From assembly GCA_043750125.1 (NCBI GenBank), contig JAYVCD010000118.1, positions 1-30,579 on the forward strand: a stretch of 30,579 nt of DNA, read 5' to 3'. Positions within the stretch are counted from its first letter, which is position 1. Each line of letters begins with the position of its first letter. The notes beneath the pieces are model-generated. The model was not told where the DNA came from, did no database searches, and worked only from the letters and a program-made list of their open reading frames with translations. Origin of the DNA: Archangiaceae bacterium. Its GTDB lineage: Bacteria > Myxococcota > Myxococcia > Myxococcales > Myxococcaceae. Below, piece after piece: positions 1 through 20,391 of the stretch. The translations under genes were made by a program, and so were the position numbers.

Positions 1-255
1 CAGCTTCGGTCCCGCCTCGAGACCGAGCGAATGGTGATTGAAGTCCACAACGACGGCCCGCCAATTCCTGCGCACCTGCTGCCCCACCTGTACGAGCCGA
101 TGAAGCGCGGCGATGAACACGGCGATCACGCCAACCACAGCATCGGGCTGGGCCTGTACATCGTCCGCCACGTCGCCCTCGCCCACCGCGGTACCGTGTC
201 GGTGTCCTCGGACCCGGAGCACGGCACTACCTTCACCGTCTGGCTGCCGGTCTAA
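1..255 (+). CDS. Sensor histidine kinase, C-terminal HATPase_c domain (5'-truncated by window edge)
   Basis: The frame is open from base 1. It contains the G1 box VHNDGPPIP, the F-box-like LYEPMKRG, the G2 box SIGLGLYIVRHVALAHRG and a terminal GTTFTVWLP. Confidence 0.9.
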   Translation, partial: QLRSRLETERMVIEVHNDGPPIPAHLLPHLYEPMKRGDEHGDHANHSIGLGLYIVRHVALAHRGTVSVSSDPEHGTTFTVWLPV

Positions 256-400: not shown

Positions 401-3400
401 TCAGGCAGCGGTCGGCCTGTCCAACTGGGCCAGCACTTCGGCCTCAGAAAGGGCGCTCAGCTCGAGGTAGGTCGCGGCGATCTGCTCGGCTACTTCGCGG
501 CTCGAGTGAAGTCGCGCCAGCTCGGCGACCAACCCTTCCACCGTCGGAGTCGTAAACAGCGCCCGCAGCGGCAGCTCGACCTGGAAGATGTCTCGCAAGG
601 CCGCGACGACGCGGGTCGCCAGCAGCGAATGCCCGCCCAATTCGAAGAAGCTGTCGCGCAGCCCGACCCGTTCGATGCCGAGCAGCTCGGCCCAGATTCC
701 CGCGACCACCCGTTCGGCATCGGTCGAGGGGCTCTGAAAGACCGAGGCCAGCTCGGGCCGAGCCGCGTCGGGCGCAGGCAGGGCGCGGCGGTCGACCTTG
801 CCATTGGACGTGAGCCGCAACGCGGGCAGCACCACGAACGCCGACGGCACCATGTACTCGGGCAGCTTGGTCAGCAGGTGCGCCCGCAGCTCGCTGCTCG
901 AAGGCGGCGCGGCGTTCGCCACCAGATACGCGACCAGCCTCGCAGCAGCCCCGTCATCGGTTCGGGCCAGGACCACCGCCTGATGAACGCCAGGGTGAAG
1001 CAGCAGCGCGCCTTCCACTTCGGACAACTCGACCCGGAAGCCGCGAATCTTCACCTGGTGGTCGATGCGTCCCAGGAATTCCAGGTCGCCGTCGGGCAGG
1101 TAGCGCGCGAGATCTCCCGTCCGGTAGAGCCGCGCGCCGGGAGTAAACGGATGCGCGACGAAGCGCTCGGCGGTCAGCTCGGGGCGATTGAGATAGCCGC
1201 GGGCGAGTCCGACGCCGCCCAGGTACAGCTCACCGACAGCGCCCAGGGGCATCAGTTGCAGCGCGGCGTCGAGCACGAAGCATTCGGTGTTGTCGATGGG
1301 CTTGCCGACCGGCGGGTGCGCCGGCCAGGCCTGCGGCGTCGCGGACAACGTGAAGGACGTGACGACGTGGGTTTCCGACGGGCCATAGTGGTTGTGGAGA
1401 ACGCAGCCCTTCAGCTGCTGAAACAGGCGAATGATCGGCTGAGTGATCACCAACTGCTCGCCGGTCGCCATCACCTCTCGCAGCCCTTGCAGCACTTCGG
1501 GACGGCGCTCGAAGAGCTCGGCCAGCTGCTGAAGAATCACCACCGGAACGACGATCTTCTCGATCGCGTTCGCGCCCAGAAACGCAGCCAGGCCTTCCAC
1601 GTCGCGCCGCAGCGGCTCGGGGACGATCACCAGCGTGCCGCCCGAAGCCCACGCGGCAAACATCTCGTGAATGCTCGCATCGAAGCTCAACGAAGCCAGC
1701 TGGGCCGTGCGCGCGTTGCGTCGCAGCGTTCGCAGGTGCCACTGCAGCAGGTTGGTCATCGCCCGATGCGGCAGGCAGACGCCCTTGGGTCGCCCAGTCG
1801 AGCCTGAGGTGTAGATGACGTAGACGAGGTGCTCGGGCCCAGCGAGCGGAGTGGGGTTCGAGGTGGACTCCCCCTCGAGCTCGGAACCCTGGGTGTCGAG
1901 ACAAAACACGCGCGCGTGATGCGGCGGCAACTCGGGCAGCAGGTGCGCTTGCGTCAACACCACCGGAGCCCCCACGTCCTCGACCATGAACGCGAGCCGT
2001 TCGCTCGGGTAGGTCGGGTCGAGGGGAACAAAGGCACCTCCGGCCTTCAACACGGCAAGGACCCCTGCCGCCATTTCCAGCGAGCGGTCGAGGAACAGCC
2101 CGACACATACGTCCGGGCCCACTCCCCACGCGCGCAGCCGGTGAGCCAGCTGGTTCGATCGCGCGTTGAGCTCGGCATACGTCAGCGACACGCCGTCGAG
2201 CTCGACCGCGATTCCCGTCGGAGTTCGCAGCACCTGTTCTTCGAAGAGCAGATGAAGCGGCTTTTCAAAGCCGTTGTCGATTTGGGTCGCGTTCAACGCC
2301 ACGCGCTGAAGATGAGCTTCTTCCTTCGGCAAGATCTCGAGCTCGGACAGCGGGCGCTGCGGGGCCTGAACGATCTCTTCGAGCAGGACGCGCAGCCGGG
2401 CCACCATCCGCTCGGCTGTGCCGGAATCGAACAGGTCGCTGCTGTACTCGAGCGTTCCAGAGAGTCCGCACGGTCCCTCTTCCAGGCTCAGCAGCAAATC
2501 GAACTTCGCCGCTGTGAAGCCCACTTCGATTTCCTCGAGCCTCAACCCGTCCTGCTCGAGCACGGGGGTGGGCACGTTCTGCAACACGAACATCGTCTGG
2601 AAGATCGGGTGGCGACTGGGGTCGCGCTGCGGCTGAAGCTTCTCGACCAGCAGCTCGAACGGCACGTCCTGCTGCGCGAAGGCTTCCAGCGAGGTCTCTT
2701 TGACTTGCGCGAGCAGGTCGCGAAACGAGAGCCCGGGCTCGAAGTGGCTGCGCAGCGGAAGGGTGTTGGCGAAGAACCCAATCAGCCCTTCCAGCTCGCG
2801 GTGGGTCCGATTTGCGACCGGAGTCCCGACCACCAGGTCCGTCTGGCCGGTATGGCGGTGCAGCAGCACTTTGAAGGCCGCGAGCAGCGTCATGAACAGG
2901 GTCGCGCCTTCTCGCAGCGCCAGCTCTTCCAATGCCTGCCCCAAGGCCGGCGGCAGGGTAAAGGGAATCGCTGCCCCCTTGAACGAGGGCACTGCCGGGC
3001 GGGGTCGGTCGGTCGCCAGTTCCAGCACCGGAAGGGGGCCGCCGAGCTTCTGACGCCAGTAGTCGAGCGGCGCTTTGAGCTGCGCCTCGGACAGCTGTTC
3101 GCGTTGCCACAAGGTGTAGTCGGCGAACTGCAGGGAGAGCTCGGGCAAGGGCGATGCGCCGCCGCGCGAAAACGCGGTGTAGAGCGCCTTCAGCTCGCCA
3201 ACCAGCACGCCCATCGACCAGCCGTCCGAGACGACGTGGTGGACGTTGAGCAGCAACACCTGCTCGTGGTCCGAGAGCTTCAGCAGCGCGCCGCGAATCA
3301 GCGGGCCCTTCTCGAGATCGAAAGGTCGTTCGCTGTCTTCCAATGCGAGGGCACGCACGCGCGCCTGCGCCCCCTCGGAAGGCAGCTCGACCAGACTGGT

Positions 3401-6400
3401 CTGCGGCAGTGGAAACGGCGCCGCGGGGTGGATCACCTGCGCCGCCTCACCCTGGACCGAAGAGAAGGTGGTGCGCAGGACCTCGTGTCGGCGAACGATT
3501 TCCCCCAGCGAGCGCTGAAGCGCGTCGACATCGAGCACGCCCTGCAGGCGCAACGCGGCGGCAATGTTGTAGGCGAAGAGCCCCGGGTCGAGCTGGTCGA
3601 TCAGCCACAGGCGCTGCTGCGAAAACGACAGCGGCAGCTTCTGCGGACGTTCGCGCCGGGTGGGCGCAAGAGTCGCTTTTTCCGTTCCGGACCCCAGCGC
3701 GGCGGTGATGCCCGCGATGGTCGGGCCTTCAAAGAATCCACGCAACGACAGCTGTTGCCCCAGGGTCTGCTGAATGCGCGAGATCAGCTGCGTCGCGAGC
3801 AGCGAATGCCCGCCGAGCTCGAAGAAGTCGTCCTCGATTCCGACCCGCTCGACGTTGAGCAGCCGCGTCCAGAGCTCGCACAGCGTCCGCTCGAGATCCG
3901 AAGAAGGCGCCACGTAGCCTTCGTCGCGATCCGCGCTGACCGCCGCCGGCGCAGGCAGCGCATGGCGGTTGACCTTCCCGTTGGCCAGCAGCGGCAAGGC
4001 GTCCAGGGCGACGAAGGCTGAAGGAATCATCTGCACCGGCAACCGCTCTTTCAGGTACCGGCGCAGCTGACGCGCCGAAGGGGCCGCGCCCGCACGGTTG
4101 ACCACGTAGGCGACCACCGCTTTTTCACCGCTCGCGTCGGCCCGGGCGACGACCAGCACCTCTTCCAATTGGGGATGCCCGGTGAGGGCGCTCTCGATTT
4201 CGCCAATCTCGATTCGAACCCCGCGAATCTTGATCTGGTGGTCGGCCCGGCCGAGCGTCTCGAGGCTGCCATCGGCCAGCAGCCGCACCCGATCTCCCGA
4301 GCGGTACAGCCGCGCGCCGGGCACCGACGAGAACGGATTAGGCACGAAGCTCGGTGCGGTCTTGGCCGCATCGCCCAGGTAGCCGCGGCCGACGCCCAGG
4401 CCGCCGATGCACAGCTCGCCCGCGACGCCCAACGGCACCCGCGCGAGGTGAGCGTCCAGCACGTACACCTGGAAGTTGGGCAACGTCCCGTGAATCGGAA
4501 TGCTGCCGGTCTTCCGGTCCGCCGGAGCCTCGAACAGCTTCAAACAGGTGACATCGTCCGAGCACTCGGTGGGGCCGTAGGCGTTGATCATCGGGGTCTG
4601 CGGCAGCCGCGCGAACCAGCGGGCGCACAGGTCGGCGGTCAGCGGCTCGCCGGTTGAAATCATCCACCGCAGCGACGACGGGCTGGGCAGCCGCTCGAGC
4701 GCGTCGAGCATCAGCCCCAGCTGGGTTGGAACCAGCTCGCAGATCGTCACCTTCTGGGCTTCGAGCCGGCTCAACAACGCCAGCGCATCGCGCCCGCACT
4801 CGTCCGGCAGCACCGCGACCCGCCCACCGTTGAGCAGCGGGGCGACGCACTGCCACACCGAGACGTCGAAGCTCTGGCGCGCCGTCTGCGCCATGCAATC
4901 CGAAGCAGTGAACCCCATCAGCTCGGCCATCGCCAACACGTGGTTGGTCAGGCCGTCGTGGGTGATCATCGCGCCCTTCGGCAGGCCGGTAGAGCCCGAA
5001 GTGAAGAGGACGTAGGCCAGGTCGCGCAGACCACTGACCCAGACCGGGTTCGAGGTCGAAGCCTCGCTGCCGATCAACGTGTTCAGCATCACCGGTTGGG
5101 CAGACAACTCGCGTGCAAGCTCGAGGTGGGCGGCCTGGGCGAGGACCAGCGGGCACTTCGCCTCGTCACAGACCTTGGCCAGCCGAAGGGCCGGCACGGC
5201 AGGGTCGAGCGGAAGAAACGCTCCGCCGGCCTTCCAGATCCCGATCATCGCCGCCAGGTAGCCGACGCCCCGCTCGTGAAGCACTCCGACGATCGTCTCG
5301 GGCCCCACCCCTTCGGAACGCAGCGCGTGCGCGATCTGGTTGGCCTGGGCGTTCAGCTCGCCATAGGTCAGCGCCCCACCGTCTTCGGTGACAGCAATCG
5401 CATCGGGGGTACGGACCACCTGGGCTTCGAACAGGTGGTGAAAGGGCACCAGCTCGGGCCAGGTCTTTTCGGTGGCGTTCCACCCGTCCTGCAGACGGCG
5501 CACCTCGTCGCCCAGCAGCTCGAGCTGCGCGATGGGCTGGGAAGGATTCTGGGCGATCGATTCGAGCAGCCGCAGGTAGTGAGCTCCCAGCCGGGTGATC
5601 GTCCCGGGGTCGAAGAGATCGGTGTTGAACTCGAAGTCCACCTGCAGCCCGCTGCCGCGCTCTTCGACGGCGACGGTGAGCTCGAACTTCGAGGTCCCGG
5701 TGTTCGGCTCTTCCAGCTGCAGCTCGAGGCCCGGCAGCGTGAGCGCCGACCTCGGAACATTGACCAGGTCGAACATCACCTGAAACAGCGGGTTCCGGGC
5801 CAGGTCGCGCTCGGGCTGCAACGCACCCACCACCTGCTCGAACGGCGCGTCCTGATTCGCGTACGCCTCGAGGGTGGACTGTCGAACCTGCTCGAGCAAC
5901 GCGAGGAAAGTCGGGTTGCCCCGGACATCCGTGCGCAACGCCAGGGTGTTGACGAAAAAGCCGATCAACCCTTCGAGCTCGGTGCGCCCGCGATTCGCAA
6001 GCGAGGTGCCGACGACCAGATCCTCTTGCCCCGAGCATCGGGACAGCAGCACGTTGAACGCGGCGAAGAGCGTCATGAACAGCGTCGCTTCGCGCTCGCG
6101 GGACAGGGCGCGAAGGGCCGCGGTCAACGGCTGGGGAATCTGCAGCGTCACGCTGCTTCCATTGAAGGTCTGCACCGGCGGCCGGGGTCGGTCGATGGGC
6201 AAGTCGATCGAGCTGGGCGCTCCGGCGAGCTTCGCCTTCCACCACGCCAGCTGCTCCTCGAGTCGCGCGCCTTCCAACCACCCGCGCTGCCACAGGGTGT
6301 AGTCGGGGTACTGAATCGGCAGCTCAGGAAGCGCAAAGGGCCGGCCTGCCGCCGCGGCCGCGTAGTGCGACGACAGCTCGGAGACCAGCACCGAGACTGA

Positions 6401-6919
6401 CCACCCATCGGACACGACATGGTGCAGCGTCAATGCGAGCAGCTGCTCGTCTTTCGCCACCTGGATCAATTGGGCGCGAATCAGCGGCCCGCGGGCGAGG
6501 TCGAAGCCCCGCTGGCTCTCGGCCAACGCCCGCTGCATCGCCTGCGACGGATCACCTGCAGCGTCCACCCGGGGAAGCTCAATCGCGAACGGAGCCGCAA
6601 TGCGCTGCACCGGCCCGGTCGGCCCGCGCTCGAACACGGTTCGCAGCGCCTCATGGCGACGCACCACTTCATTCAGCGCCTGGTGCAGCGCGTCGACGTT
6701 CAGCTTTCCGCGCAGCCGCACCAGCCCCGACACGTTGTACTGGGCGGTTCCCGGCTCGAGCTGATCGAGCACCCACAGCCGCTGCTGAGAAAAAGACAGC
6801 GGCAGCTCGGGCGGGCGAACCGCGCGGGGAATCGACGGCACCTTCGAATCGCCGAGGCCCTCGTCCTCGAGCAACATCTCGAAGAGCTCATTTCGCTGCG
6901 CGGATTCAGTGAGTTGCAT
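401..6919 (-). CDS. Two-module NRPS, C-A-PCP-C-A-PCP, no TE/R domain; A1 predicted 2,4-diaminobutyrate, A2 proline-family
   Basis: Two C domains (LSFSQQRLW, HHVVSDGWS twice). Two A domains (YVLFTSGSTGLPKG / YVIYTSGSTGRPKG, YGPTE / YGPSE, LYRSGD / LYRTGD, NGKV). Two PCPs (FFELGGHSLLA). Specificity codes read by eye against GrsA: DVWEITADDK and DAHVMTHVVK. The start overlaps the upstream stop by 14 bp. Confidence 0.96.
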   Translation of the reverse strand: MQLTESAQRNELFEMLLEDEGLGDSKVPSIPRAVRPPELPLSFSQQRLWVLDQLEPGTAQYNVSGLVRLRGKLNVDALHQALNEVVRRHEALRTVFERGPTGPVQRIAAPFAIELPRVDAAGDPSQAMQRALAESQRGFDLARGPLIRAQLIQVAKDEQLLALTLHHVVSDGWSVSVLVSELSSHYAAAAAGRPFALPELPIQYPDYTLWQRGWLEGARLEEQLAWWKAKLAGAPSSIDLPIDRPRPPVQTFNGSSVTLQIPQPLTAALRALSREREATLFMTLFAAFNVLLSRCSGQEDLVVGTSLANRGRTELEGLIGFFVNTLALRTDVRGNPTFLALLEQVRQSTLEAYANQDAPFEQVVGALQPERDLARNPLFQVMFDLVNVPRSALTLPGLELQLEEPNTGTSKFELTVAVEERGSGLQVDFEFNTDLFDPGTITRLGAHYLRLLESIAQNPSQPIAQLELLGDEVRRLQDGWNATEKTWPELVPFHHLFEAQVVRTPDAIAVTEDGGALTYGELNAQANQIAHALRSEGVGPETIVGVLHERGVGYLAAMIGIWKAGGAFLPLDPAVPALRLAKVCDEAKCPLVLAQAAHLELARELSAQPVMLNTLIGSEASTSNPVWVSGLRDLAYVLFTSGSTGLPKGAMITHDGLTNHVLAMAELMGFTASDCMAQTARQSFDVSVWQCVAPLLNGGRVAVLPDECGRDALALLSRLEAQKVTICELVPTQLGLMLDALERLPSPSSLRWMISTGEPLTADLCARWFARLPQTPMINAYGPTECSDDVTCLKLFEAPADRKTGSIPIHGTLPNFQVYVLDAHLARVPLGVAGELCIGGLGVGRGYLGDAAKTAPSFVPNPFSSVPGARLYRSGDRVRLLADGSLETLGRADHQIKIRGVRIEIGEIESALTGHPQLEEVLVVARADASGEKAVVAYVVNRAGAAPSARQLRRYLKERLPVQMIPSAFVALDALPLLANGKVNRHALPAPAAVSADRDEGYVAPSSDLERTLCELWTRLLNVERVGIEDDFFELGGHSLLATQLISRIQQTLGQQLSLRGFFEGPTIAGITAALGSGTEKATLAPTRRERPQKLPLSFSQQRLWLIDQLDPGLFAYNIAAALRLQGVLDVDALQRSLGEIVRRHEVLRTTFSSVQGEAAQVIHPAAPFPLPQTSLVELPSEGAQARVRALALEDSERPFDLEKGPLIRGALLKLSDHEQVLLLNVHHVVSDGWSMGVLVGELKALYTAFSRGGASPLPELSLQFADYTLWQREQLSEAQLKAPLDYWRQKLGGPLPVLELATDRPRPAVPSFKGAAIPFTLPPALGQALEELALREGATLFMTLLAAFKVLLHRHTGQTDLVVGTPVANRTHRELEGLIGFFANTLPLRSHFEPGLSFRDLLAQVKETSLEAFAQQDVPFELLVEKLQPQRDPSRHPIFQTMFVLQNVPTPVLEQDGLRLEEIEVGFTAAKFDLLLSLEEGPCGLSGTLEYSSDLFDSGTAERMVARLRVLLEEIVQAPQRPLSELEILPKEEAHLQRVALNATQIDNGFEKPLHLLFEEQVLRTPTGIAVELDGVSLTYAELNARSNQLAHRLRAWGVGPDVCVGLFLDRSLEMAAGVLAVLKAGGAFVPLDPTYPSERLAFMVEDVGAPVVLTQAHLLPELPPHHARVFCLDTQGSELEGESTSNPTPLAGPEHLVYVIYTSGSTGRPKGVCLPHRAMTNLLQWHLRTLRRNARTAQLASLSFDASIHEMFAAWASGGTLVIVPEPLRRDVEGLAAFLGANAIEKIVVPVVILQQLAELFERRPEVLQGLREVMATGEQLVITQPIIRLFQQLKGCVLHNHYGPSETHVVTSFTLSATPQAWPAHPPVGKPIDNTECFVLDAALQLMPLGAVGELYLGGVGLARGYLNRPELTAERFVAHPFTPGARLYRTGDLARYLPDGDLEFLGRIDHQVKIRGFRVELSEVEGALLLHPGVHQAVVLARTDDGAAARLVAYLVANAAPPSSSELRAHLLTKLPEYMVPSAFVVLPALRLTSNGKVDRRALPAPDAARPELASVFQSPSTDAERVVAGIWAELLGIERVGLRDSFFELGGHSLLATRVVAALRDIFQVELPLRALFTTPTVEGLVAELARLHSSREVAEQIAATYLELSALSEAEVLAQLDRPTAA

Positions 6920-8135
6920 GGACGTTTTCCTCGTTCGCAGCGACTTGATCTTTCAGCGCCGCCAGGTGTTCCAGGCTCGCGAGCACTTCGGCCGGGGCCA
7001 CTCCGAAGTCGATCAAGCAGGCCACTTCGTTCACCCCCGCCCCTCGCAGCCGGTCGGCCATCGCAAGGCAGGTCTGGGGGGTACCAATCAGCGACTGGCC
7101 GTTGAGGTAGCGCTGAAACGCGAAGTCCAGCAGCGCGTCTTCGTCGGCGCGGGTCAAGGTGAGGTCCCCGGTTCCCGTCTGGGCCAGAGATTTGGCCAGC
7201 TCTCCGTGCGAGCGAAGGTAGGCGTGAAGCGGGCCGCGCACGGTCTGCTCGACCTCGCGAGAGTCCGTGCCCAGGAAGGTGTGTGCCATCACGGTCACCA
7301 CCCCCAGCTCGGGAGCGTGACCGTGGCGGGCGCGGGCCTCGCGATACGCCGCCACCCGTTCTGCGAGCTGATCCACCGTGAGATCCAGCAGCGCGGTGAG
7401 CACGTGGGTGCCCCGCTCGCCGGCCTTGACGAAGGTGTCGATCGAACGCGCAGCCGTCATCCAGATGGGAAGCTCGGGCTGCACCGGGCGCGGGAAAGTC
7501 TTCACCAGCGTTTTGGCTCCTCCGCCCCCGACAAACGGCAGCGCCTCGCCACGCCACAGGCGCCGCAGGGCGTCGACGCCCTCGTTGACCGAGTCTTTGC
7601 GATCGGCGTAACGCTCGGGCGCAAAGACGAAGTCGTTCGCGTGCCATCCTGAGGCAAACGCCAGGCCGACCCGCCCGTTCGAGAGGTTGTCCACCACTGA
7701 CCATTCTTCGGCGATGCGCACCGGGTGGTGCAGGGGCAAGACGACGCTGCCCGCTCGCAGCTCGACCCGCTGGGTAATCATCGCCAGGGCGGCCGAGAGC
7801 ACCGACGGGTTGGGGTACAGCCCGCCAAAAGGGTGAAAGTGCCGTTCCGGAGTCCAGACCGCTTTGAAGCCCCGCTGGTCGGCAAAGCGCGCTCCGTCGA
7901 GCAGCAGTTGGTACTTCGGCGCGCCTGAGGGTGACTGAGTCTCGTCGCTGGAAAAGTAGAACAGGCTGAAGTCCAGGTGCCGGCTGGCCTGGCCAGTCAC
8001 CGAGGGCAGAGGCGCGGAACGAGGGGGCACAGGCGGCTGTTCTTTGCGTGCCAGACCGGTGCGCTCGAGCTTGAGCGTGAGCAGCGCGCGCTGCTCGGGC
8101 GAGAGGGCGGCGATTCGAAGCGAGAGGTCGCTCAC
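6906..8135 (-). CDS. Luciferase-like (LLM-class) flavin-dependent monooxygenase, natural-product MupA/Atu3671 type, with N-terminal docking-like helix
   Basis: Motifs FSLFYFS, KYQLLLDGARFADQRGFKAVWTPERHFHPFGGLYPNPSV, LRAGSVVLPLHHPVRIAEEWSVVDNLSNGRVGLAFASGWHANDFV and VNEVACLIDFGV. The GTG start overlaps the PKS stop (GTGA). Confidence 0.93.
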   Translation of the reverse strand: MSDLSLRIAALSPEQRALLTLKLERTGLARKEQPPVPPRSAPLPSVTGQASRHLDFSLFYFSSDETQSPSGAPKYQLLLDGARFADQRGFKAVWTPERHFHPFGGLYPNPSVLSAALAMITQRVELRAGSVVLPLHHPVRIAEEWSVVDNLSNGRVGLAFASGWHANDFVFAPERYADRKDSVNEGVDALRRLWRGEALPFVGGGGAKTLVKTFPRPVQPELPIWMTAARSIDTFVKAGERGTHVLTALLDLTVDQLAERVAAYREARARHGHAPELGVVTVMAHTFLGTDSREVEQTVRGPLHAYLRSHGELAKSLAQTGTGDLTLTRADEDALLDFAFQRYLNGQSLIGTPQTCLAMADRLRGAGVNEVACLIDFGVAPAEVLASLEHLAALKDQVAANEENVHATH

Positions 8136-11100
8136 TTGGCGCTTTCCTGAGCCAGGGCGGAATTCGTGTCGCCCATCGCCTGCTGCATTTCTTCAGCGGA
8201 CATCTGCTCGACCTCGGCCAGCAATTTCTCGATTTCGAGCTGCTCGGCGGCCGAGGAGCGTTCGACCTTGATGATCTGAGCCACGCCCGCCACCGTCGGC
8301 GCCTCGAAGAATCGCGACAGCGGCAGCTCGAGCCCGAACATTCCGCGCAGCTTCGAGATCAACTGAATCGAGAGCAGCGAGTGACCGCCCAGCTCGAAGA
8401 AGTCGTCGTTGATTCCGATTTCAGACACCCCCAGCATTTCTTGCCAGACGACGGCGACCTTCGCCTCGGTCTCGTCCGTGGGCGCGACGTAGGCGGACTT
8501 CATTCGAGGCCGGGCGTGGGCCTTCAACGCCGGCGATGCGTCCGGGGAACGGGGGGTGGTCAGGGCCTGCGCCAGCTGCGCCACTTCCGCGCGCAACACG
8601 GCCAGGGGCCGCGCGGCGACCACCACCTGCGGCCCCGGCTTGCTGGCGAGGATCTGCATCAACGCGTCGAGGGCCTGGCTCGTCTTCAACCCCGTCGGCA
8701 AGCTCGCCACCGGCTGCGCGGCGAAGACCTGCGCGGCATCGACTTTGATCATCGTGAAGTCGCTGATCACCACCAACTCGACTCCACTCGGGTTGGCGAT
8801 CACCACGTCACAGACCAGGGTGCTCGAGTTCTTTGCCTCTGCGCCGTGATAGCGAATGTGACTGAACACCCGGCGTTCCATCGGGTGGTGAACCCGCAGC
8901 GCGCCATAGGTGATCGGCAGATAAAAGCCGTCGGTCACCTGCGGCATTGCAAGCGCGGTCGCTACGTCCAGCAGCGACGGGTGGAGCGCCAAAGTGGGGA
9001 GATCTCCCTCGAACCCCAGGTCCAGCTCGAGCTCGGCGATCCGCTCGCCCTTCCCTACCGCGACCTGCTTCAGGGTCTTCCACCGCTGCCCGTAGACCAT
9101 GTGCTTCTGCGTTTCGAGCAGGCCCAACACGACCTCGGAGCTCTGCGCTTCACACCGCTGCTGCACCTCGGCCACCGCCAGGCAGCGCACCGGGGAAGAG
9201 GCCAGGCCCACGTTCCCGCGAACATGGTCCTGCCACGGCTCGTCGACCCGACCCCGGCTGCGGACCACGAACGCGCCATTCGCGATCGCCGTTCGAACCT
9301 CGCGGGTCTCGTGATCCGAAATCTGCATCGGCCGAACGAAGACGATGTCTCGCAGCTCGACCGTCCCGGTGGCTCCGCGCTCGACGAACGCAGCGCGCAC
9401 CATCTCGAGGTAGGTGGTGCCCGGAACGACGGCGCCCCCGAGGATCCGATGCTCGTTCAACACCCACTGACGCTCGACCCGGAAGTCGGTGCGGTACTCG
9501 ACGGACGCGTCGGTGTCGGTCAGGCAGACGTCGAGCAGCGGGTGGTTCACGGCTCGGCCGACGGCCGCAGGCAGCCTGGACTTCGCCGCCATTCCGACTT
9601 CCTCCCAGGCGTCCCAGTTGATCGAGATCGCTCCGTGCGACTGCGCGAACGCATCGAGGAAGGCGTTGGCCGCCGCGTAGTCGACCTGTCCTGGATCGCC
9701 GAGGATCGCGGAGAGCGAAGAGCACAGAACGAAGAAGTCGAGCGGACGTCCCAGCGCCGCCGCCAACGCAATTGTTCCTTCCAACTTCGGCCTCAAGACT
9801 TCGGCGGCGGAAGCGGGCGTCTTCAGCTCGAGCAGCGCGCCCGAAGAAATTCCTGCGGCGTGGACCACGCCATTCAAGGTTCCGAACTGCGCACGAACCT
9901 GGTCGACGACCTCGCGCATCGCCGCGGAATCGGCGACATCAGCGCTGAAGGTCACGACCCGGGCACCCAGTTGTTCCAGCTTTTCGATATTTCGCAGCTG
10001 CTCTGCAGTCGGGCTCGAGCGGGAAACCAGCGCGAGGTTGGCCTTGGCCACTTGCGCGAACCGTTCTGCAACCGCGCCCCCGATGCCTCCCAGGCCCCCG
10101 GTGATGAGGTACGTGCCGCCCTCGCGCAGCCCGCCCAACGGCTGGCTCTGAACAGGCAGCTGCACCGGCGCCAGCGTCTGGACCCAACGTCGCCCGCCGC
10201 GCAGCGCAACGACGTCTTCGCCCTGCACCCCGAGCTCTTCGACCAACAGCGCGGCGGCATCGCCCGCCTCGAGATCCACGGCGCGACAGCTCACGCCGGG
10301 AAGCTCAGCCTGCAGCACCCGACAGGCGCCCAGCAGCGCGGCCCGTTCAGGACCTTCGGTGTCTTCGCCACAAACGCTCTGAAGCTCGGTCGTCACGATC
10401 ACCAACTCGACCGGATCTCGGCTCTTGCGGGCTGCGATCGCCTTGCCGAGCTCGAGCAGCTCGAAGAACCCTCGCGACACTTCGGCCGAGGCGTCGGGCT
10501 TCAGTGCCCAGAAATGCACCAGGGTGCACGGGCCCGCGGTGCGGGCTACGAGCTGGGCGACCGCGCCTCGCACCCGATCGGAGCCCGAGGCCTGCGCGCG
10601 CACCACTGTCTGGCCGTTCGCCTCCAGACCCAGCGCCACCTTCTCGCCCAACGGGCTTCCGTCGAGCAGCAACATCCAGGTGCGCGCCACAGGGTCGATT
10701 CGCTTCGGGGACAACCGGGCATCGGCCAGACGGGTCCAGGACGGCAGACAGATCTCGGGCTGCGCCAGTGCGCCTTGCGCTCGTTCCTCACTGACCGGCC
10801 GAGCTGCCGTGGCCGCAGCGGGTTCGATGAAGTACCGCTCACGCGCGAACGGATAAGTCGGAAGAGGAACCCGGCCCCGCGCGCCGGCGGAATGCAGCGC
10901 CGCCCAATCGGGCTTTGCGCCTGCGAGCCACACCAGGGCCAACGCCTCGAGGAAGTGGCGCTGGTCGTCCTCTTCACCGTGGGGCAGCGAGCCATAGACG
11001 TGCTGGCCCCGCTGTTCGGTGCGCTGCAGTCGAGCAAACGTCGCGAGCGCCCGACCCGGACCCACCTCGAGCAACACCCGTTCGGTACTCGAGAGCGCGG

Positions 11101-13438
11101 TCTTCAACCCGTCTGCGAAGCGCACGGGCGCGCGCAGCTGCCGCGCCCAGTACCGGGGGTCTGTCGCCTGCTCAGCGGTGAGCCACGTCCCGGTGAGGTT
11201 GGAAAGAATCGGCAAGGTCGGTGCGCGAAGCGTCACCTGCCCCACCCGATGCGCGAACACCTCGAGAATCGGGTCCATCATCGGCGAGTGGAACGCGTGC
11301 GAGGTGCGAAGCCTCTTGCCCGTCAGCTGCCGTGCGGACAGCTGTCCCTCGAGTGCCTCGACCGCTGCCAGCGTCCCCGAGACGACGCACTGGCTGGGGC
11401 CGTTCACCGCGGCGAGCACGAGGTCCGGGCCGAGCAGCGCCAACACTTCAGCCTCGGGCATCGCCACTGCGAGCATCGCTCCCGCCGGCAACGCCTGCAT
11501 CAACGCGCCGCGAGCGGCCACCAGGCCGAGCGCATCTTCCAGCGAAAAGACTCCTGCGAGACAGGCCGCGACGTACTCACCCAGGCTGTGGCCGATCATT
11601 GCCGCCGGGCTGATCCCCAGTCGGATCCAAAGCCGGGCGAGCGCGTATTCCACGACGAAGAGCGCGGGCTGCGTCCATCGCGTCTGGGTCAGCAGCGCTC
11701 CAGCGTCCTTCGCTGCGGTCCCGGTAGCAAAGAGCAGCGCGCGAAGATCTCGACCCAGCAGCGGCTCGAGGACCCGCGCGCAGTGGTCCACGTCTTCCCG
11801 AAAGCCGGGGTCAGCGGCGTACAGCGCGCGGGCCATGCCGACGTGCTGCGCGCCTTGCCCGGGAAACATGAACACCACCGAGGGCGCCTGCACTGCGTCC
11901 ACCGAGCTCAACCCTTCGCGCGCCGCGAGCGCCCGCCCGGCTTCGACGCCGTCGCGACAGACGATGGCTCGACGATGCTCGAAGGCCCGTCGCCCTCGCT
12001 GAAGGGTGAACGCTGCGTCTGCCAGCGACGCTTCGCCCCGCACGAGGTGGGCCGCCAGCGCGTCGGTCGCCTGCTCGAGCGCGATCGCGGTGCGCGCCGA
12101 GATCGTCACCAACTGCCAACCTTTGTCTTCCTTCACCGGCTCGCGCGCCGGCGCCTCTTCGAGCACGACGTGCGCGTTGGTTCCGCCAATGCCGAACGAG
12201 CTCACCCCTGCACGGCGCGGCGTCTTGCCCCGCGGCCACGGACGCAAGGCCGCATTGACGAAGAAGGGCGAGGTCTCGAAGGAAATCGCCGGGTTCGGCG
12301 CGGTGAAGTGAAGGCTGGGCGGCAGCTGCTCGTGGGTGAGGGCGAGCGTGGTCTTGATCAGCCCGGTGATGCCTGCCGCCGAGTCGAGGTGCCCGAGGTT
12401 GGTCTTCACCGAGCCGATCGCGCAAAAGCCCTTGTCCGCGGTGCCGGCTCGAAAGGCCTGGGTCAGCGCCGCGATCTCGATCGGGTCTCCCATCAACGTG
12501 CCGGTGCCGTGCGCTTCGATGTAGGAAATCGAACGCGGCTCGACCTCGGCGACCGCCTGCGCCGCGGCGATTACTTCGGCCTGACCGTCGACGCCCGCGG
12601 CGGTGTATCCAACCTTGCGCGAGCCATCGTTGTTGATCGCCGTGCCTTTGATCACCGCGTGAATGGTGTCGCGGTCGGCGAGCGCGTCTTCGAGCCGCTT
12701 GAGCACCACCACTCCGACGCCGCTGCCGGGGACGATGCCTTTCGCCTCGGCATCGAATGCCCGGCAGTGACCGTCGGGTGAGAGCACTCCGCCCTGCTGG
12801 TATTGATATCCCTGCGACTGGGGGACGCGAACGGCCACGCCACCCGCGAGCGCCATGTCGCACTCGAAGCCGAGCAACGCGCGGCAGGCCAGGTGCACCG
12901 CGACCAACGACGTAGAGCACGCCGTCTGGATGTTGAGGCTCGGACCCTTGAGGTTCAGCTTGTAGGACACCCGCGTCGCCAGGTAGTCCTTGTCGTTCGA
13001 CAGCTCGACCTGCGTCTCTCCAACCGAGGCCAGCAAATCAGGGTGCGAGAGCAGGTTCAGCAGCAGGTAGCTGGGCAGGCTCAAGCCGGCGTAGACCCCG
13101 ACAGGAACCTGGCTGCCCGAAGGCTCGTAACCCGAGTGCTCGAGCGCGGCCCAGGCGGCCTCGAGAAAGACCCGTTGTTGAGGGTCGATCAGCTCGGCTT
13201 CGCGCGGGGTGTACCCGAAGAAGCGGGCGTCGAACTTGTCGAAGTCTTCGAGAATCGCCTTGGCCTTGACGTAGCTCGGGTCGGCCAGCGTCGCGGCGCT
13301 CACCCCCGCAGCGCGCAGCTCTTCATCGGTGAAGAACGAGATCGACTCGACCCCTTGCGCGAGATTGCTCCACAGCTGCTCGATGTCCCGTGCTCCAGGA
13401 AAGCGCCCCGCCAGTCCGATGATCGCAATCGCATCCAT
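8132..13438 (-). CDS. Modular type I PKS, KS-AT-KR-DH-ACP (hybrid-type KS, malonyl-CoA AT)
   Basis: KS: NDKDY, QTACSTS, EAHGTGT, KTNLGHLD. AT: GHSLGE and HAFH. KR: YLITGGLGGIG, HAAG, SS...YAAAN. DH: HRILGGAVVP and HPSLLD. Carrier: FFELGGHSL. RBS GAGGA upstream of the ATG. Confidence 0.96.
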   Translation of the reverse strand: MDAIAIIGLAGRFPGARDIEQLWSNLAQGVESISFFTDEELRAAGVSAATLADPSYVKAKAILEDFDKFDARFFGYTPREAELIDPQQRVFLEAAWAALEHSGYEPSGSQVPVGVYAGLSLPSYLLLNLLSHPDLLASVGETQVELSNDKDYLATRVSYKLNLKGPSLNIQTACSTSLVAVHLACRALLGFECDMALAGGVAVRVPQSQGYQYQQGGVLSPDGHCRAFDAEAKGIVPGSGVGVVVLKRLEDALADRDTIHAVIKGTAINNDGSRKVGYTAAGVDGQAEVIAAAQAVAEVEPRSISYIEAHGTGTLMGDPIEIAALTQAFRAGTADKGFCAIGSVKTNLGHLDSAAGITGLIKTTLALTHEQLPPSLHFTAPNPAISFETSPFFVNAALRPWPRGKTPRRAGVSSFGIGGTNAHVVLEEAPAREPVKEDKGWQLVTISARTAIALEQATDALAAHLVRGEASLADAAFTLQRGRRAFEHRRAIVCRDGVEAGRALAAREGLSSVDAVQAPSVVFMFPGQGAQHVGMARALYAADPGFREDVDHCARVLEPLLGRDLRALLFATGTAAKDAGALLTQTRWTQPALFVVEYALARLWIRLGISPAAMIGHSLGEYVAACLAGVFSLEDALGLVAARGALMQALPAGAMLAVAMPEAEVLALLGPDLVLAAVNGPSQCVVSGTLAAVEALEGQLSARQLTGKRLRTSHAFHSPMMDPILEVFAHRVGQVTLRAPTLPILSNLTGTWLTAEQATDPRYWARQLRAPVRFADGLKTALSSTERVLLEVGPGRALATFARLQRTEQRGQHVYGSLPHGEEDDQRHFLEALALVWLAGAKPDWAALHSAGARGRVPLPTYPFARERYFIEPAAATAARPVSEERAQGALAQPEICLPSWTRLADARLSPKRIDPVARTWMLLLDGSPLGEKVALGLEANGQTVVRAQASGSDRVRGAVAQLVARTAGPCTLVHFWALKPDASAEVSRGFFELLELGKAIAARKSRDPVELVIVTTELQSVCGEDTEGPERAALLGACRVLQAELPGVSCRAVDLEAGDAAALLVEELGVQGEDVVALRGGRRWVQTLAPVQLPVQSQPLGGLREGGTYLITGGLGGIGGAVAERFAQVAKANLALVSRSSPTAEQLRNIEKLEQLGARVVTFSADVADSAAMREVVDQVRAQFGTLNGVVHAAGISSGALLELKTPASAAEVLRPKLEGTIALAAALGRPLDFFVLCSSLSAILGDPGQVDYAAANAFLDAFAQSHGAISINWDAWEEVGMAAKSRLPAAVGRAVNHPLLDVCLTDTDASVEYRTDFRVERQWVLNEHRILGGAVVPGTTYLEMVRAAFVERGATGTVELRDIVFVRPMQISDHETREVRTAIANGAFVVRSRGRVDEPWQDHVRGNVGLASSPVRCLAVAEVQQRCEAQSSEVVLGLLETQKHMVYGQRWKTLKQVAVGKGERIAELELDLGFEGDLPTLALHPSLLDVATALAMPQVTDGFYLPITYGALRVHHPMERRVFSHIRYHGAEAKNSSTLVCDVVIANPSGVELVVISDFTMIKVDAAQVFAAQPVASLPTGLKTSQALDALMQILASKPGPQVVVAARPLAVLRAEVAQLAQALTTPRSPDASPALKAHARPRMKSAYVAPTDETEAKVAVVWQEMLGVSEIGINDDFFELGGHSLLSIQLISKLRGMFGLELPLSRFFEAPTVAGVAQIIKVERSSAAEQLEIEKLLAEVEQMSAEEMQQAMGDTNSALAQESAK

Positions 13439-13448
13439 GGTGATGTCC

Positions 13449-16400
13449 TCAGCTCGAAGGCGATCGCTTCTTGCGTGCCTTCTCGAGCGCGGCCCGTTGG
13501 CGAGAGGCGCGGTCCTGCACCTCGCGGATGCCCTGGTTCGGGTCCGCGGCCTGGCTCAAGAACGCCGCCAGCTCGTGAATCGTGGGGTGCTGAAACAGCT
13601 CGACCATCGTGACGCTGCGACCGAGCACGTCCTCGAGCTTGCTGTGCACCCGAACCATCAGCAGCGAGTGGCCGCCGAGGTCAAAGAAGTTGTCCTGAAT
13701 CCCGACCTGCTCGAGCCCGAGCGCTTCACGCCACACCTTCGCGATCAGCCGCTCGAGATCATTAGTGGGCGCAATCGACGCCCGGGGAACGACCACCGGC
13801 ACCGGCAGCGCCCGGCGATCAATCTTCCCGTTCACCGACAGCGGCAGGCTGGAAAGGAAAGTGAAGATCGCGGGGATCATCGGTTCAGGCAGGCGCGCCT
13901 TGAGCCACGCACGCAGCCCATTCGCGTCGGGGGTCGGGTCGACGGAAACCACGTAGGCCAGCAACTGGGCGCTGCCCGCCGCGTCCGGCCGCGCGATCAC
14001 CACCGCCTGCCGCACCGTGGGGTGGGTGGCCAGCGTCGCTTCGATTTCCCCGGGCTCGATTCGAAAGCCGCGCACCTTGATCTGCTCGTCGAGTCGCCCG
14101 AGAAATTCGAAGTTTCCATCGGGAAGCTGCCGCACCCGATCTCCGGTGCCGTAAAGCCTGGACCCGGTGTCGAAAGGCGCAGGGACAAAGCGCGCCGCCG
14201 TCAGCTCGGGCAAACCGAGGTAGCCGCGGGCCAGCTGCGGGCCACCCAGCCACAGCTCGCCGGGGACACCGGTCGGCACCGGACGCTTGAGCGGGTCGAG
14301 CACCCAGGCCTCGATCGCACCGACCGGCCGGCCGATGGGCAGGCACGCAGTGTCCACCGACATCGCGTCGGACTCGGGCTCGAAGACGAGCGAAGTGATC
14401 GTCGCCTCGGTTGGCCCGTAGCCGCTGATCAACGCCGGCTGAATTCCGACCGCGCGACGCCAGCGCTCGAAGTGAAGGCTCGAGGTCTTCTCGCTTCCCG
14501 TCACCACCAGCCGCAACGACCTCGGGGGACGATTTCGTTCGGACCCCAGCGCCTCGACCCAGATGTGCCAATACGGCGAAGGAAGGTTCACCACCGTGAG
14601 CCGCTCGCGATCCAGGAACTTCACCAGCTCGGGAATGCCCGGCACGCCCTGCTCGGGCCACAGCACCAGGGTGGCGCCCCTGCACAGCGTGGGGAAAATC
14701 TCTTCAGCCGCCACGTCGAACCCGATGCCCGACAGCTGCAGCACGCGGTCGGTCGGTGACAGCCGAAGGAAGCCCTGCGCCCCGTCCAGATAGCTGGCGA
14801 ACGCACCGTGGGTCACGAGCACGCCTTTGGGGCGACCGGTCGAGCCGGACGTGTAGACGACGTACGCGAGCTGCTCGCCTTTTGGCTCGACCTTCGGGGC
14901 TTCAGCGCCCTGAAGGTTCAGCGCCGGGCTCTCGCGATCGATCAACAGCAGCGCTCGCGGCGTCGAAGGCAACACGGCCGCCAGAGGGGTCGTGGTGATC
15001 AGCAGCTGGGCCCGAGAGTCGTCCAGCATGAAGGCCAGCCGGTCGGCCGGAAGGCTGGGGTCCAGAGGAAGGAAGGCGCCGCCGGCCTTGAGAATCGCCA
15101 GCTCGGCCACCACCAGCTCGGGCGAGCGCGGAAGGCAGACTCCGACGATCGTCTCGAGGCCAATTCCCTGTTCGACCAGCCGGTGGGCGAGCCGATTCGC
15201 GCGCTCGTCGAGGTCGCGATAGGTCAGCCTCTCTTCGCCGCACTGAATGGCAATCGCCTCGGGGCTCAGCGCCGCCTGGGCCGCCACCCGACGCGTCACA
15301 CCGACGCAGCTGCCCGCGACACGGGCCAACCGCGGGGCGCGAGGGTTTGCGTCGGACTCCAGCGCGAAGGCCCCCACCGCGGTCTGCGGAGCGTCGACGA
15401 TGCCGGCGAGCAGCACCTGAAAATGCTCGGCCATTCTCGACAACGTCGAAGGCTCGAACAGATCGCTGTTGTACTCGAAGGCACCGGAAAGCCCGGGGCC
15501 CACTTCGGCCAGGCTCAAGGTCAAATCGAACTGGGCGACGCGGCGCGACAACGCCAGCGACTCGATCGACAGGCCTCCCAGTTCCATCCGCGCGCCCGCC
15601 TCGTCCAGCGAGAAGGCCGTCATTCCCTCGTCGGCAAGTGCGTGTGCCCGCTGCAGGACGAACATCGTCTGGAACAGCGGCGAACGACTGGGGTCGCGAC
15701 GCGGCTGCAGGCGTTCGACCAGCAACGGAAGCGGAAAATCTTGATGCTCCAGCGCGCCCAACACCGAACGCCGCGTGCGCTCGAGCAGCGTCGCAAACGA
15801 AGGCTGATCCTCGAACCGCGCTCGCAGCACGACCGGGCTGACCAGGTACCCGAACAGCCCGGTGAAGCGCGAACGGCTTCGACCCGCCGCAGGCGAACCA
15901 ATCAACAGATCGTCCTGCCCCGAGTACCGGTGCAGCAACACCTGAAATCCTGCCAACAACGTCGCGTAGAGCGTCGCGCCGCTGCTCTGGGCGAGCGCCT
16001 TGAGCTTGACGGTCAGCGCCGGGTCGATCGAGAACGCGTGCGAGGCGCCCCGATACGTCTGCACCGCGGGACGAGGCCGGTCGGTGTGAAGCTCGAGCGT
16101 CGGCAGCACTCCGGCCAGGTTCGAACGCCAGTACTCCCACAGCTGCGCGCCTTCGGGACTCTGCAGCAGTGCGCTTTGCCATTGGGTGTGGTCCGCAGGA
16201 GTCGCGCCAGGAAGAGGCAGCGACAGCGGCTTGCCCGCCCGCGCCTGCAGGTACAACGGGACCAGCTCGCTCACCAGTTGGACCAGCGACCAGAAGTCCG
16301 CGACCAGGTGGTGGACGACCAGCAGCAGCACGTGGTCCTGCGGTCCGCGCCGGAAGAGGCTGACCCGAAACAGGGGGCCCCGCTCGAGCTCGAAGCGCTT

Positions 16401-18800: not shown

Positions 18801-18805
18801 GGCCG

Positions 18806-20140
18806 TCAGTGCCCGTTCGCGTGCTGCAAAGGCTTGGCAACAGCCGGCCGAATCATCGCGGCGATGGAAATGTCCTGCGGCTGCGAGCCCAGAACTTCCG
18901 CCAGTGCGCTCGACAAAATCTCGAGCCCCGCCACCAGCTGCGCGCGGGGAATGGTGAGCGCGGGCAGCACCTTGAGCACGTTGTCTTCGCGGCCACAGCG
19001 CTCGAGGATCAAGCCCGCCTCGAAGCAGCGCCGTTGTATCTCGGTCGCAGCAGCAGGCCCCCCGCATTGCGCGAGGTCCAGGCCGGCGACCATTCCGATG
19101 CTCCGCACCTGCAGCTGGGGGTACGCGCGGCCAATGGACGTGGCGTAAGCCTGAATCAGCTGGCTCTTCTCGCGCAGGCCCTGCAGGAAGACCTCGTCTT
19201 TCCAGTACTCGAGCGCAGCGGTCGCCGCGACCAGGGACAGCTGGTTGGCGCGGAAGGTCCCGGTGTGTTCTCCGGGCGACCAGCGATCGAGCTCGCGCTT
19301 CATCAGCACCACCGCCATCGGAAGGCCGTACCCGCCAATCGACTTCGAGAGCGTCACGATGTCCGGCTGAATTCCCGCCCGATCGAATGAGAAGAAGTCT
19401 CCGGTGCGGCCGCAGCCCACCTGAATGTCGTCGCAGATCATCAAGATCTCGAAGCGGTCGCACAGCGCGCGAAGCCCCTGGAGGAACTCAGGAGTCGACG
19501 GGTAGACCCCACCGTCCATCTGCACCGATTCCAGAATCACGGCCGCCGGACGTTCGACGCCCGAGCAGCTGTCCTCGAGCAGGCGCTTCATCAGCCCCAG
19601 CGAGTCGAAGGCTCCGTGCGGCCCATCGGGAAACGGAATGAAGGTCGTGTTCGACAGCGGCACGCCCACCGCGGCCCGCACGCCCAGGCTGGCCGTGACC
19701 GAGCTGCTGCCCATCGTCATGCCGTGGAAGGAACCGGTGAACGCGAAGATTCCGGTTCGGCCGGTGATCTTTCGCGCCAGCTTCAGCGCGGCCTCGACCG
19801 CGTTGGCGCCCGTCGGCCCCGGAAACTGAATTTTGTAATCGAGCCCGCGCGGCGCGAGCACGGTGTCGACGAAGGTCTGCAGGAACAACGCCTTCTGCGT
19901 CGTGTAGACGTCGAGCCCGTGAACGATTCCGTCCGCGCCCAGGTACTCGAGCAGCTTTTCTTTGATCGGCTCGGGGTTGTGGCCGTAGTTCAGTGCGCCT
20001 GCGCCCGCGAAGAAGTCGAGGTACCCGCGACCTTCGGTGTCGAAGATCTGAGAGCCCTTGGCGCGCTGGAAAATCTTCGGAAACACCCGGCAGTACAAAC
20101 GGACTTCGGACTCGTGCTGCTCGAAGACGCGCGTCGACAT
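18806..20140 (-). CDS. ectB: Diaminobutyrate--2-oxoglutarate aminotransferase (class III PLP enzyme, EctB/PvdH family)
   Basis: N-terminus MSTRVFEQHESEVRLYCR, then YLDFFAGAGALNYGHN, QFPGPTGANAVEAALKLARK, FHGMTMG, DDIQVGCGRTG, the PLP lysine motif LSKSIGG and PGEHTGTFR. Confidence 0.92.
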   Translation of the reverse strand: MSTRVFEQHESEVRLYCRVFPKIFQRAKGSQIFDTEGRGYLDFFAGAGALNYGHNPEPIKEKLLEYLGADGIVHGLDVYTTQKALFLQTFVDTVLAPRGLDYKIQFPGPTGANAVEAALKLARKITGRTGIFAFTGSFHGMTMGSSSVTASLGVRAAVGVPLSNTTFIPFPDGPHGAFDSLGLMKRLLEDSCSGVERPAAVILESVQMDGGVYPSTPEFLQGLRALCDRFEILMICDDIQVGCGRTGDFFSFDRAGIQPDIVTLSKSIGGYGLPMAVVLMKRELDRWSPGEHTGTFRANQLSLVAATAALEYWKDEVFLQGLREKSQLIQAYATSIGRAYPQLQVRSIGMVAGLDLAQCGGPAAATEIQRRCFEAGLILERCGREDNVLKVLPALTIPRAQLVAGLEILSSALAEVLGSQPQDISIAAMIRPAVAKPLQHANGH

Positions 20141-20142
20141 GG

Positions 20143-20391
20143 TCAGACCTGCCCTGACGCGTTGAAGTCGCCCGGGGTGAGGTTGTGCTTCTTGAAGAGC
20201 TTGCGGACGTAGACGCGATCGATGCCCGCCACCCGCGAGGCCTTCGACACGTTCCCGCCACATCGACGCGCCAGCTGCTCGAGGTACTCGCGCTCGAAGG
20301 CGTTGACCAGCTGCTCTTTGGCCTCTTTGAACGGAACCGGCGAGGCCAGGTCACCCGATGAGTCCTCGTACTTGTAGCTTCCCTCGTCCAT
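20143..20391 (-). CDS. Stand-alone Fis-type helix-turn-helix protein (82 aa), resembling the C-terminal DNA-binding domain of sigma54 enhancer-binding proteins
   Basis: PFKEAKEQLVNAFEREYLEQLARRCGGNVSKASRVAGIDRVYVRKLFKKHNL. GGAGAA RBS just upstream of ATG 20391. The stop lies 2 bp before the aminotransferase start. Confidence 0.85.
   Translation of the reverse strand: MDEGSYKYEDSSGDLASPVPFKEAKEQLVNAFEREYLEQLARRCGGNVSKASRVAGIDRVYVRKLFKKHNLTPGDFNASGQV

Follow-up and report, generated by a model that had tools for sequence, protein, structure and literature searches.

Contig JAYVCD010000118.1 of an Archangiaceae bacterium (assembly GCA_043750125.1; here C118), whose 30,579 nucleotides are the entire window analysed here, encodes a free-standing luciferase-like monooxygenase (LLM) between a polyketide synthase (PKS) and a nonribosomal peptide synthetase (NRPS). 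The genome comprises 6.17 Mb in 460 contigs and is 89.4% complete. We present sequence comparisons suggesting that this LLM is probably a trans-acting monooxygenase of the TIGR04020 family, which would dock through an N-terminal helical head on the C-terminal tail of the PKS and hydroxylate C2 of the β-ketoacyl thioester held by the acyl carrier protein (ACP) of that PKS. An earlier, sequence-only reading of the window had left open whether the LLM shares the PKS tail for on-line hydroxylation or docks on the last NRPS as an oxidative release enzyme. Domains are abbreviated as KS (ketosynthase), AT (acyltransferase), KR (ketoreductase), DH (dehydratase), C (condensation), A (adenylation), T (peptidyl carrier protein, PCP), TE (thioesterase), R (reductase) and FAAL (fatty acyl-AMP ligase).

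The monooxygenase, its head and its relatives

The features that make up the junction are as follows.

6906..8135, minus strand: standalone LLM, TIGR04020 / PF00296, 409 amino acids with a GTG start, identified by profile search and by sequence and fold matches in the Protein Data Bank (PDB)
8061..8135, minus strand: LLM head, residues 1-25, predicted helices 2-9 and 13-25, a putative N-terminal docking domain (NDD) of the 'long' subtype
7974..8060, minus strand: proline-rich linker, LLM residues 26-54, of variable length and low model confidence
6951..7970, minus strand: monooxygenase TIM-barrel core, from profile, model and fold search
8132..13438, minus strand: PKS with the order KS-AT-KR-DH-ACP, likely carrier of the LLM substrate, from domain scan and motifs
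8174..8245, minus strand: acidic two-helix tail at the C-terminus of the PKS, a putative C-terminal docking domain (CDD) in which Glu precedes the first hydrophobic position

The open reading frame (ORF) at 6906-8135 begins as the sequence-only reading quoted it, with its own N-terminal helix and a proline-rich linker that runs to about residue 54. Residues 56-395 match TIGR04020 with 496.6 bits against a cut-off of 244.45, covering model positions 1-341 of 341, and a profile search of the genome returned this protein as the only match. Its best solved sequence match is the OX domain of PuwE, 6KET (E 1.5e-108, 48% identity), which is also the top Foldseek match of an AlphaFold2 model of the LLM (E 4.3e-39, TM 0.92 over the target). 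That model, computed from a 46-row alignment, is a confident luciferase-type TIM barrel (pTM 0.85), preceded by the two head helices and a linker with a pLDDT of 44-61 per 10-residue block. Two long ORFs that overlap this region, 6700-7704 and 6419-7105, are taken as shadow frames of GC-rich coding DNA. For two-component LLMs it is usual that no flavin donor is found. As had been stated for the window, no flavin reductase is encoded nearby, the family not being found among the 11 window ORFs scanned; PF01613 had no match in the 89% complete genome, and PF03358 gave one weak genomic match, on contig C441 (28.8 bits).

The head recurs among homologues. About 100 of 119 other listed proteins, counted by eye, begin with an LLM-type head followed by a variable linker; this list was length-filtered and score-ranked, which favours head-bearing proteins, and the count is not a frequency. 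The head is conserved among these homologues and the linker behind it is not. Within this genome an LLM-head profile reaches at least 18 bits in only 5 of 54,339 stop-to-stop frames, four of them at LLM or NRPS proteins. Gene context was compared at 160 loci, the best 80 of 596 and the best 80 of 575 matches from two scans, in which 112 LLMs were embedded in larger proteins, 24 were standalone with a head, 18 were standalone without one, 4 had other extensions and 2 were cut. An acidic-tailed carrier lies directly before 22 of the 24 head-bearing standalone LLMs (17 evidently PKS, 2 NRPS and 3 too short to tell). A C-domain gene follows 19 of the 24, and 18 of these C-domain proteins begin with the same long head; three loci end too soon and two (L081, L104) continue with unrelated genes. 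Typically, an internal junction combines one tail with two heads. LLM heads are also more similar to the C-domain head encoded in the same cluster than to shuffled heads (score 65.4 vs 59.9, p 0.00035, with kin not independent). In one further arrangement, L107:9534-15411, a head-bearing LLM comes after a small acidic-tailed protein that follows a FAAL, and groups with FAAL-ACP-LLM fusions; from this grouping, heads were likely gained more than once in this LLM family.

Fused relatives place the enzyme at a carrier and point to its substrate. A carrier precedes the LLM in 9 of 12 proteins with a C-terminal fused LLM, and five fused proteins keep the full acidic tail in their linker; all five lack the head, and each is followed by a head-bearing subunit. 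The six complete fused modules that were scanned all read KS-AT-ACP-LLM, without KR, and the nearest fused relatives have neither KR nor DH. The catalytic Tyr is missing from 6 of the 15 partner KRs of head-bearing LLMs. Because the fused modules lack KR and these partner KRs lack Tyr, a β-keto thioester appears to be the common substrate of the family. Among 301 genomes of the order, the best LLM match outside the window (60% identity, head included) lies on contig C31 of genome G164, where, as in the window, the partner KR is intact. The domain order of the window PKS is unusual; it is common to G164 and not to most PKS partners of head-bearing LLMs.

Two trees were computed, a likelihood tree of 40 of the 162 LLM domains and a quick tree of the full set. 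In the likelihood tree the window LLM groups with that of G164 (100/96), then with the fused L001 (95/84) and then with four KS-AT-ACP-LLM fusions (90/85), and three other fusions nest within head-bearing LLMs (100/99). All 84 LLMs inserted in A domains lie across a split from the window LLM in the quick tree (support 0.82), and 1 of 14 such LLMs falls on the window's side of the corresponding 85/81 branch in the likelihood tree.

Tails, heads and the continuation of the line

On the minus strand the window reads diaminobutyrate aminotransferase, FAAL-ACP-C-A-T, PKS, LLM and NRPS, and then meets a convergent kinase fragment at 1-255. The GTG start of the LLM overlaps the PKS stop; in G164 the LLM gene abuts the PKS gene. 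The remaining features are listed here.

401..6919, minus strand: NRPS, C-A-T-C-A-T without TE, last in the window and internal in the pathway, from domain scan and comparison with G164
6857..6919, minus strand: short acidic head of this NRPS, with the Lys-bearing tail of a module encoded on contig C375 as its likely partner
422..487, minus strand: acidic tail of this NRPS, with the basic short heads of two proteins of contig C155 (a C-A-T subunit and an unknown 405-amino-acid protein) as its likely partners
13449..18803, minus strand: FAAL-ACP-C-A-T starter subunit, its start placed just behind the aminotransferase stop
18806..20140, minus strand: diaminobutyrate (Dab) aminotransferase, EctB/Dat-like, likely Dab supplier
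1..255, plus strand: histidine kinase, C-terminal part only, matching HATPase_c profile positions 35-108

The line likely continues beyond the window. In G164:C31 the genes run FAAL-ACP-C-A-T, PKS with tail, head-bearing LLM, head-bearing C-A-T with tail, and C-A-T-C-A-T with tail, followed by an aminotransferase, a PhyH dioxygenase, a C-A-T protein, KS-AT-ACP with a terminal domain, an MFS transporter, an acylase and further genes. The window NRPS is 50.5% identical over 2209 amino acids to the internal C-A-T-C-A-T protein of that cluster. In the genome of the window, C155 carries the best matches of the PhyH (61%), C-A-T (45%) and PKS (52%) genes, and C375 carries those of the MFS transporter (48%), acylase (49%), FAD oxidoreductase (67%), cytochrome c (55%) and head-bearing C-A-T module (40.7%); the four NRPS/PKS pairs tested between the two genomes were reciprocal. 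The C155 PKS ends in PF07993, the family of thioester reductase domains, cut by the contig end. When aligned with G164, the C155 half of the reductase covers residues 1193-1424 and the C375 half residues 1423-1556, and the two contigs overlap by 9 nt. A PAS-HisKA kinase part is open at the other end of C155 and the window begins with the remaining HATPase_c piece, a split kinase that suggests that C155 adjoins the window. No exact end overlap of at least 12 nt was found between C118, C155, C375 or C419 and any contig. Contigs from public runs bridge neither end of C155 (a contig that ends exactly with the last base was seen in two runs, and none covers the stretch), so the contig joins rest on split genes and gene order only.

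The sequence-only reading was correct that the window NRPS has no TE, as the domain scan confirmed, and no PF00975 match is listed on C118, C155, C375 or G164:C31. Since the NRPS is internal in G164, the line runs on to KS-AT-ACP-R and no thioesterase match is listed, the line likely ends by reductive release through the KS-AT-ACP-reductase.

The acidic C-terminal tails described earlier on the PKS and on the last NRPS of the window are both present. That reading's count of two tails and two heads holds for elements that do exist and is incomplete, there being three tails and five heads across the three contigs. The LLM itself, a profile member, scores 39.9 bits on the LLM-head profile, and the C375 module follows with 34.9; the two C155 heads reach 5.8 and 3.6 and the head of the window NRPS 2.5. 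The NRPS head is thus not the 'eroded' copy for which it had been taken; it is instead a distinct acidic subtype, with a net charge of -5 in its first 28 residues, and is conserved in that form in G164. Type 2 and PAX-type docking domains are described as having a fixed hydrophobic spacing and an acidic tail residue that faces a basic head residue (PMC11221535). By eye, I8, L11 and L19 with K22 of the LLM head fit the type 2 NDD spacing (i, +3, +11, then basic), and the PKS tail has an acidic residue followed by hydrophobics at i, +3, +8 and +12, as in the PaxB CDD (PMC11221535), both being short patterns that are weak alone. Charge was then compared in 37 pattern-matched tail/head rows, obtained with crude patterns and from kin that are not independent. 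Where the key tail position is acidic, the head is positive in 17 rows, neutral in 3 and negative in none; where it is basic, the head is negative in 5, neutral in 1 and positive in none; the tail residue is neutral in the other 11. The C375 tail has Lys at this position and the window NRPS head is strongly acidic; the G164 counterparts show this pattern too.

From the head profile scores and the charge match at the key tail position, the PKS tail likely serves the heads of the LLM and the C375 module, the C375 tail the window NRPS, and the window NRPS tail the C155 heads. The window NRPS head would accordingly be no rival of the LLM for the PKS tail. The earlier proposal that hydroxylation occurs on-line by sharing that tail gains support from gene order, fused relatives and the tree; what changes is the sharer, which is likely the single-module NRPS of C375 and not the next NRPS of the window. 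The 405-amino-acid protein on C155 (G000:C155:7967-9190, minus strand; L195:7967-9190) has a head that is a near copy of that on the C-A-T subunit two genes downstream, and may be a second case of one tail with two heads in the pathway. It has no Pfam match and no match among the G164 cluster proteins.

Searches with the isolated heads and tails returned no docking family in Pfam or the PDB, and single queries of 31 and 52 residues, which have low power, gave no docking-domain match among solved structures at E<=10. No TubC_N or β-hairpin docking domain was found at the LLM N-terminus with Pfam, and the head is all-helical in the model. A complex prediction for the PKS ACP-tail with the LLM head scored 0.15 against a mark of 0.32; its controls were not folded and it is used neither way.

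Several observations concern the cluster as a whole. The pathway appears to form one cluster of roughly 60 kb over C118, C155 and C375, cut by assembly, with an intact homologue at G164:C31 19799-62000. The head-bearing C-A-T module, which directly follows the LLM in G164, has been relocated here to the far end, and the kinase and an unknown gene are inserted. At G000:C375:4288-7377, an FAD oxidoreductase, a cytochrome c and a small protein accompany the cluster here as in G164, and a cupin-like gene is present here only. The G164 cluster's PLP aminotransferase has its best match (50%) in the protein encoded at G000:C419:3-2081 (minus strand), which has, in one frame, an extra N-terminal region, presumably a hydroxyphenylpyruvate dioxygenase-type domain; the C419 protein could act on an aldehyde released by the reductase. 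The pocket of the first A domain in the window NRPS resembles the Dab code, which fits the aminotransferase of the cluster. The FAAL start and the acylase suggest an acylated precursor. Upstream of the aminotransferase, a short unlisted ORF (window about 20140-20390, minus strand) resembles the C-terminal helix-turn-helix of sigma-54 activators, and is possibly a gene remnant or a small regulator.

Proposed mechanism and its alternatives

We propose that the FAAL-containing NRPS would make an acyl-aminoacyl unit, which the PKS would extend by malonate. The head of the LLM and the nearly identical one that begins the next condensation subunit, likely the C375 NRPS, would alternate on the one PKS tail, and docking would help the LLM to act before the KR of the module. 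With FMNH2 from an unlinked reductase and O2, the LLM would form a 2-hydroxy-3-oxo thioester, as judged from MupA and PuwE. MupA is reported to hydroxylate only an ACP-bound β-keto thioester, with added Fre supplying reduced flavin (PMC10952193), and the OX domain of PuwE is the proposed source of a 2-hydroxy group (PMC4219810). The intact KR would then reduce the 2-hydroxy-3-oxo thioester to a 4-amino-2,3-dihydroxy unit, and the DH may either idle, leaving the 2,3-diol, or dehydrate it to an enol and so yield an α-keto amide. The chain would pass through the C375 module, the two-module NRPS of the window, the C-A-T subunit of C155 and the KS-AT-ACP-R protein with reductive release. Judged by analogy from family, context and the KR-less fusions, C2 hydroxylation of a β-keto thioester is the most likely reaction of the window LLM.

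A number of findings weigh against this proposal. The KR of the window PKS keeps its K/S/Y/N residues and glycine motif and the DH its His and Asp motifs, and these apparently intact domains could use up the β-keto substrate or present the LLM with an enoyl one. Nor is the family uniform: the upstream carrier is an NRPS PCP in 2 of the 24 head-bearing loci (L010, L131), and the genes downstream of the LLM are unrelated in the two noted above. Seven of the 18 headless standalone LLMs occupy the same slot, six of them behind a tail and five ahead of a C domain that bears the head, so not every lineage needs a head on its LLM. Support for separating carrier-adjacent from A-inserted LLMs is only moderate (0.82; 85/81), the G164 head-bearing C-A-T module finds its best match on C375 but not a close one (40.7%, against 38.4% for the second best), and there is no sequence overlap at the join of C155 and C118.

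The alternatives differ in what the LLM does and in where it docks. There is a small but real chance that it docks on the PKS tail for other chemistry, namely epoxidation of a 4-amino-2-enoyl thioester, or Baeyer-Villiger-type oxidation or chain shortening of a β-keto thioester. The PKSs of the window and G164 both have KR and DH, unlike most of the family, and LLMs are described as epoxidases (mensacarcin) and in chain shortening (CalD, MndB) (PMC8739492); however, the nearest fused relatives are without KR and DH, so an enoyl thioester would not be the shared substrate, and the closest solved relative is the OX domain of PuwE. We consider it unlikely that the barrel contacts the ACP directly for hydroxylation and that the head is a dispensable remnant or a minor boost to affinity. 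The headless LLMs in the same slot would fit such a scheme, as would MupA, which is reported to work without a recognised docking motif (PMC10952193), but the head is conserved where the linker is not, it resembles the C-domain head of its own cluster beyond shuffled pairs, and it is lacking from the fused forms.

Docking on the tail of the two-module NRPS, with oxidation of a PCP-bound peptidyl intermediate in mid-line, is very improbable. That tail is acidic at the key position and compatible in charge, and the upstream carrier is a PCP in L010 and L131; yet two closely matched short basic heads on C155 already fit it, the LLM head belongs to the long type seen after PKS-type tails, and the LLM gene overlaps or abuts the PKS gene in the two genomes. 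Least credible is docking on the terminal NRPS with oxidative, MtaG-like release in place of a TE, which the sequence-only reading had offered to explain the missing TE and which is now largely refuted. MtaG is presumably of the same broad LLM family in NRPS/PKS lines. The absence of a TE in the window and the two loci (L081, L104) without an NRPS behind the LLM would suit oxidative release, and the MOX domains of MtaG and MelG are proposed to yield a terminal amide (PMC11411415). According to the same source, however, MOX domains of this type are inserted in the A domain of a terminal module in which a TE is retained, whereas the window LLM is free-standing, groups with carrier-adjacent LLMs (moderate support) and is separated from all 84 A-inserted LLMs in the quick tree. 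Furthermore, the G164 counterpart of the NRPS lies inside its cluster, and the C-A-T and KS-AT-ACP-R proteins encoded after it have their best matches on C155 and C375, so the LLM does not stand at the last module of the line. Its free-standing form, its tree grouping and the continuing line argue that it is not an MtaG-type release domain.

Relation to known systems and significance

Docked C2 hydroxylation by the window LLM has partial counterparts in described pathways. MupA (mupirocin), OocM and CalD are likewise free-standing TIGR04020-type enzymes at an inter-subunit junction with an external flavin reductase (PMC10952193), and an ACP-bound β-keto substrate would be a further likeness. 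These serve trans-AT bimodules, whereas the window LLM stands at a cis-AT PKS/NRPS junction with a dedicated helical head; no trans-AT bimodule with a downstream KS0 is found in the window, where the PKS carries an AT itself and is followed by NRPS subunits. No 4-helix-bundle or DHD docking motif is reported at the mupirocin, calyculin and oocydin junctions (PMC10952193). By analogy, the window LLM may work like MupA and OocM outside a trans-AT KS0 bimodule. The OX domain of PuwE (puwainaphycin) also lies between a PKS ACP and an NRPS C domain; as described in PMC4219810 it is fused in cis behind an aminotransferase and leads to a 3-amino-2-hydroxy acid, whereas the window LLM is free-standing and its module has KR and DH. 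Corramycin, with a 5-amino-2,3-dihydroxy unit from a PKS module, is not a precedent, as its main text names no monooxygenase, and a preprint on histone deacetylase inhibitors was set aside because it concerns a different oxidoreductase.

As modelled, the head is like the type 2 / PAX three-helix-bundle domains (CurG/CurH, Bam_5925/5924, PaxB/PaxC; PMC11221535, PMC9113145) in being helical, at the extreme N-terminus and on a flexible linker. Unlike those examples it is borne by a tailoring enzyme, would share its tail with a C domain and belongs to no Pfam family. PAX-type helical docking domains have been predicted on oxidoreductases, and in systems of short linear motifs (SLiM) and β-hairpins, whose fold differs from that of the window, one tail is reported to recruit several partners, including halogenases, methyltransferases and reductases (PMC9113145); a related helical docking pair in which the carrier takes part has also been described (PMC8251938). 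The principles of one tail with several partners, docking domains on oxidoreductases and trans α-hydroxylases are already in print, which limits the surprise. A literature search that did not cover Watzel et al. 2020, the primary PAX paper, whose supplement may list these oxidoreductases, found no description of an LLM with a helical docking head. A broader proposal, to which we give only a slim chance, is that the helical head is a portable, charge-coded plug for tailoring enzymes (the LLM and the 405-amino-acid protein) that time-share a carrier tail with the next C domain, and that docked C2-hydroxylation, with KR and DH acting afterwards, turns a malonate extension into a 4-amino-2-oxo-acyl (α-ketoamide) unit. 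Such a route to a 4-amino-2-oxo-acyl unit was not found in the literature searched.

For this organism, a lipopeptide cluster of some 60 kb, broken into three contigs and ending in reductive release, is a better reading of the locus than a compact cluster without TE. The headless LLMs that occupy the same slot (L007, L031, L032, L033, L045, L080 and L091, five of them in cyanobacteria-labelled records) are natural controls for the contribution of the head. For the family, the junction described here is likely an in-line tailoring arrangement of wide occurrence and probably no new means of product release; the cassette is present in the family to which this genome belongs as well as in loci with the labels Acidobacteriota, Chloroflexota and Gammaproteobacteria. 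If docking is true, a PKS tail, a head-bearing LLM and a head-bearing C domain would together predict a 2-hydroxylated extension in genome mining, and the 25-residue head would be a tag for attaching an α-hydroxylase at engineered PKS/NRPS junctions.

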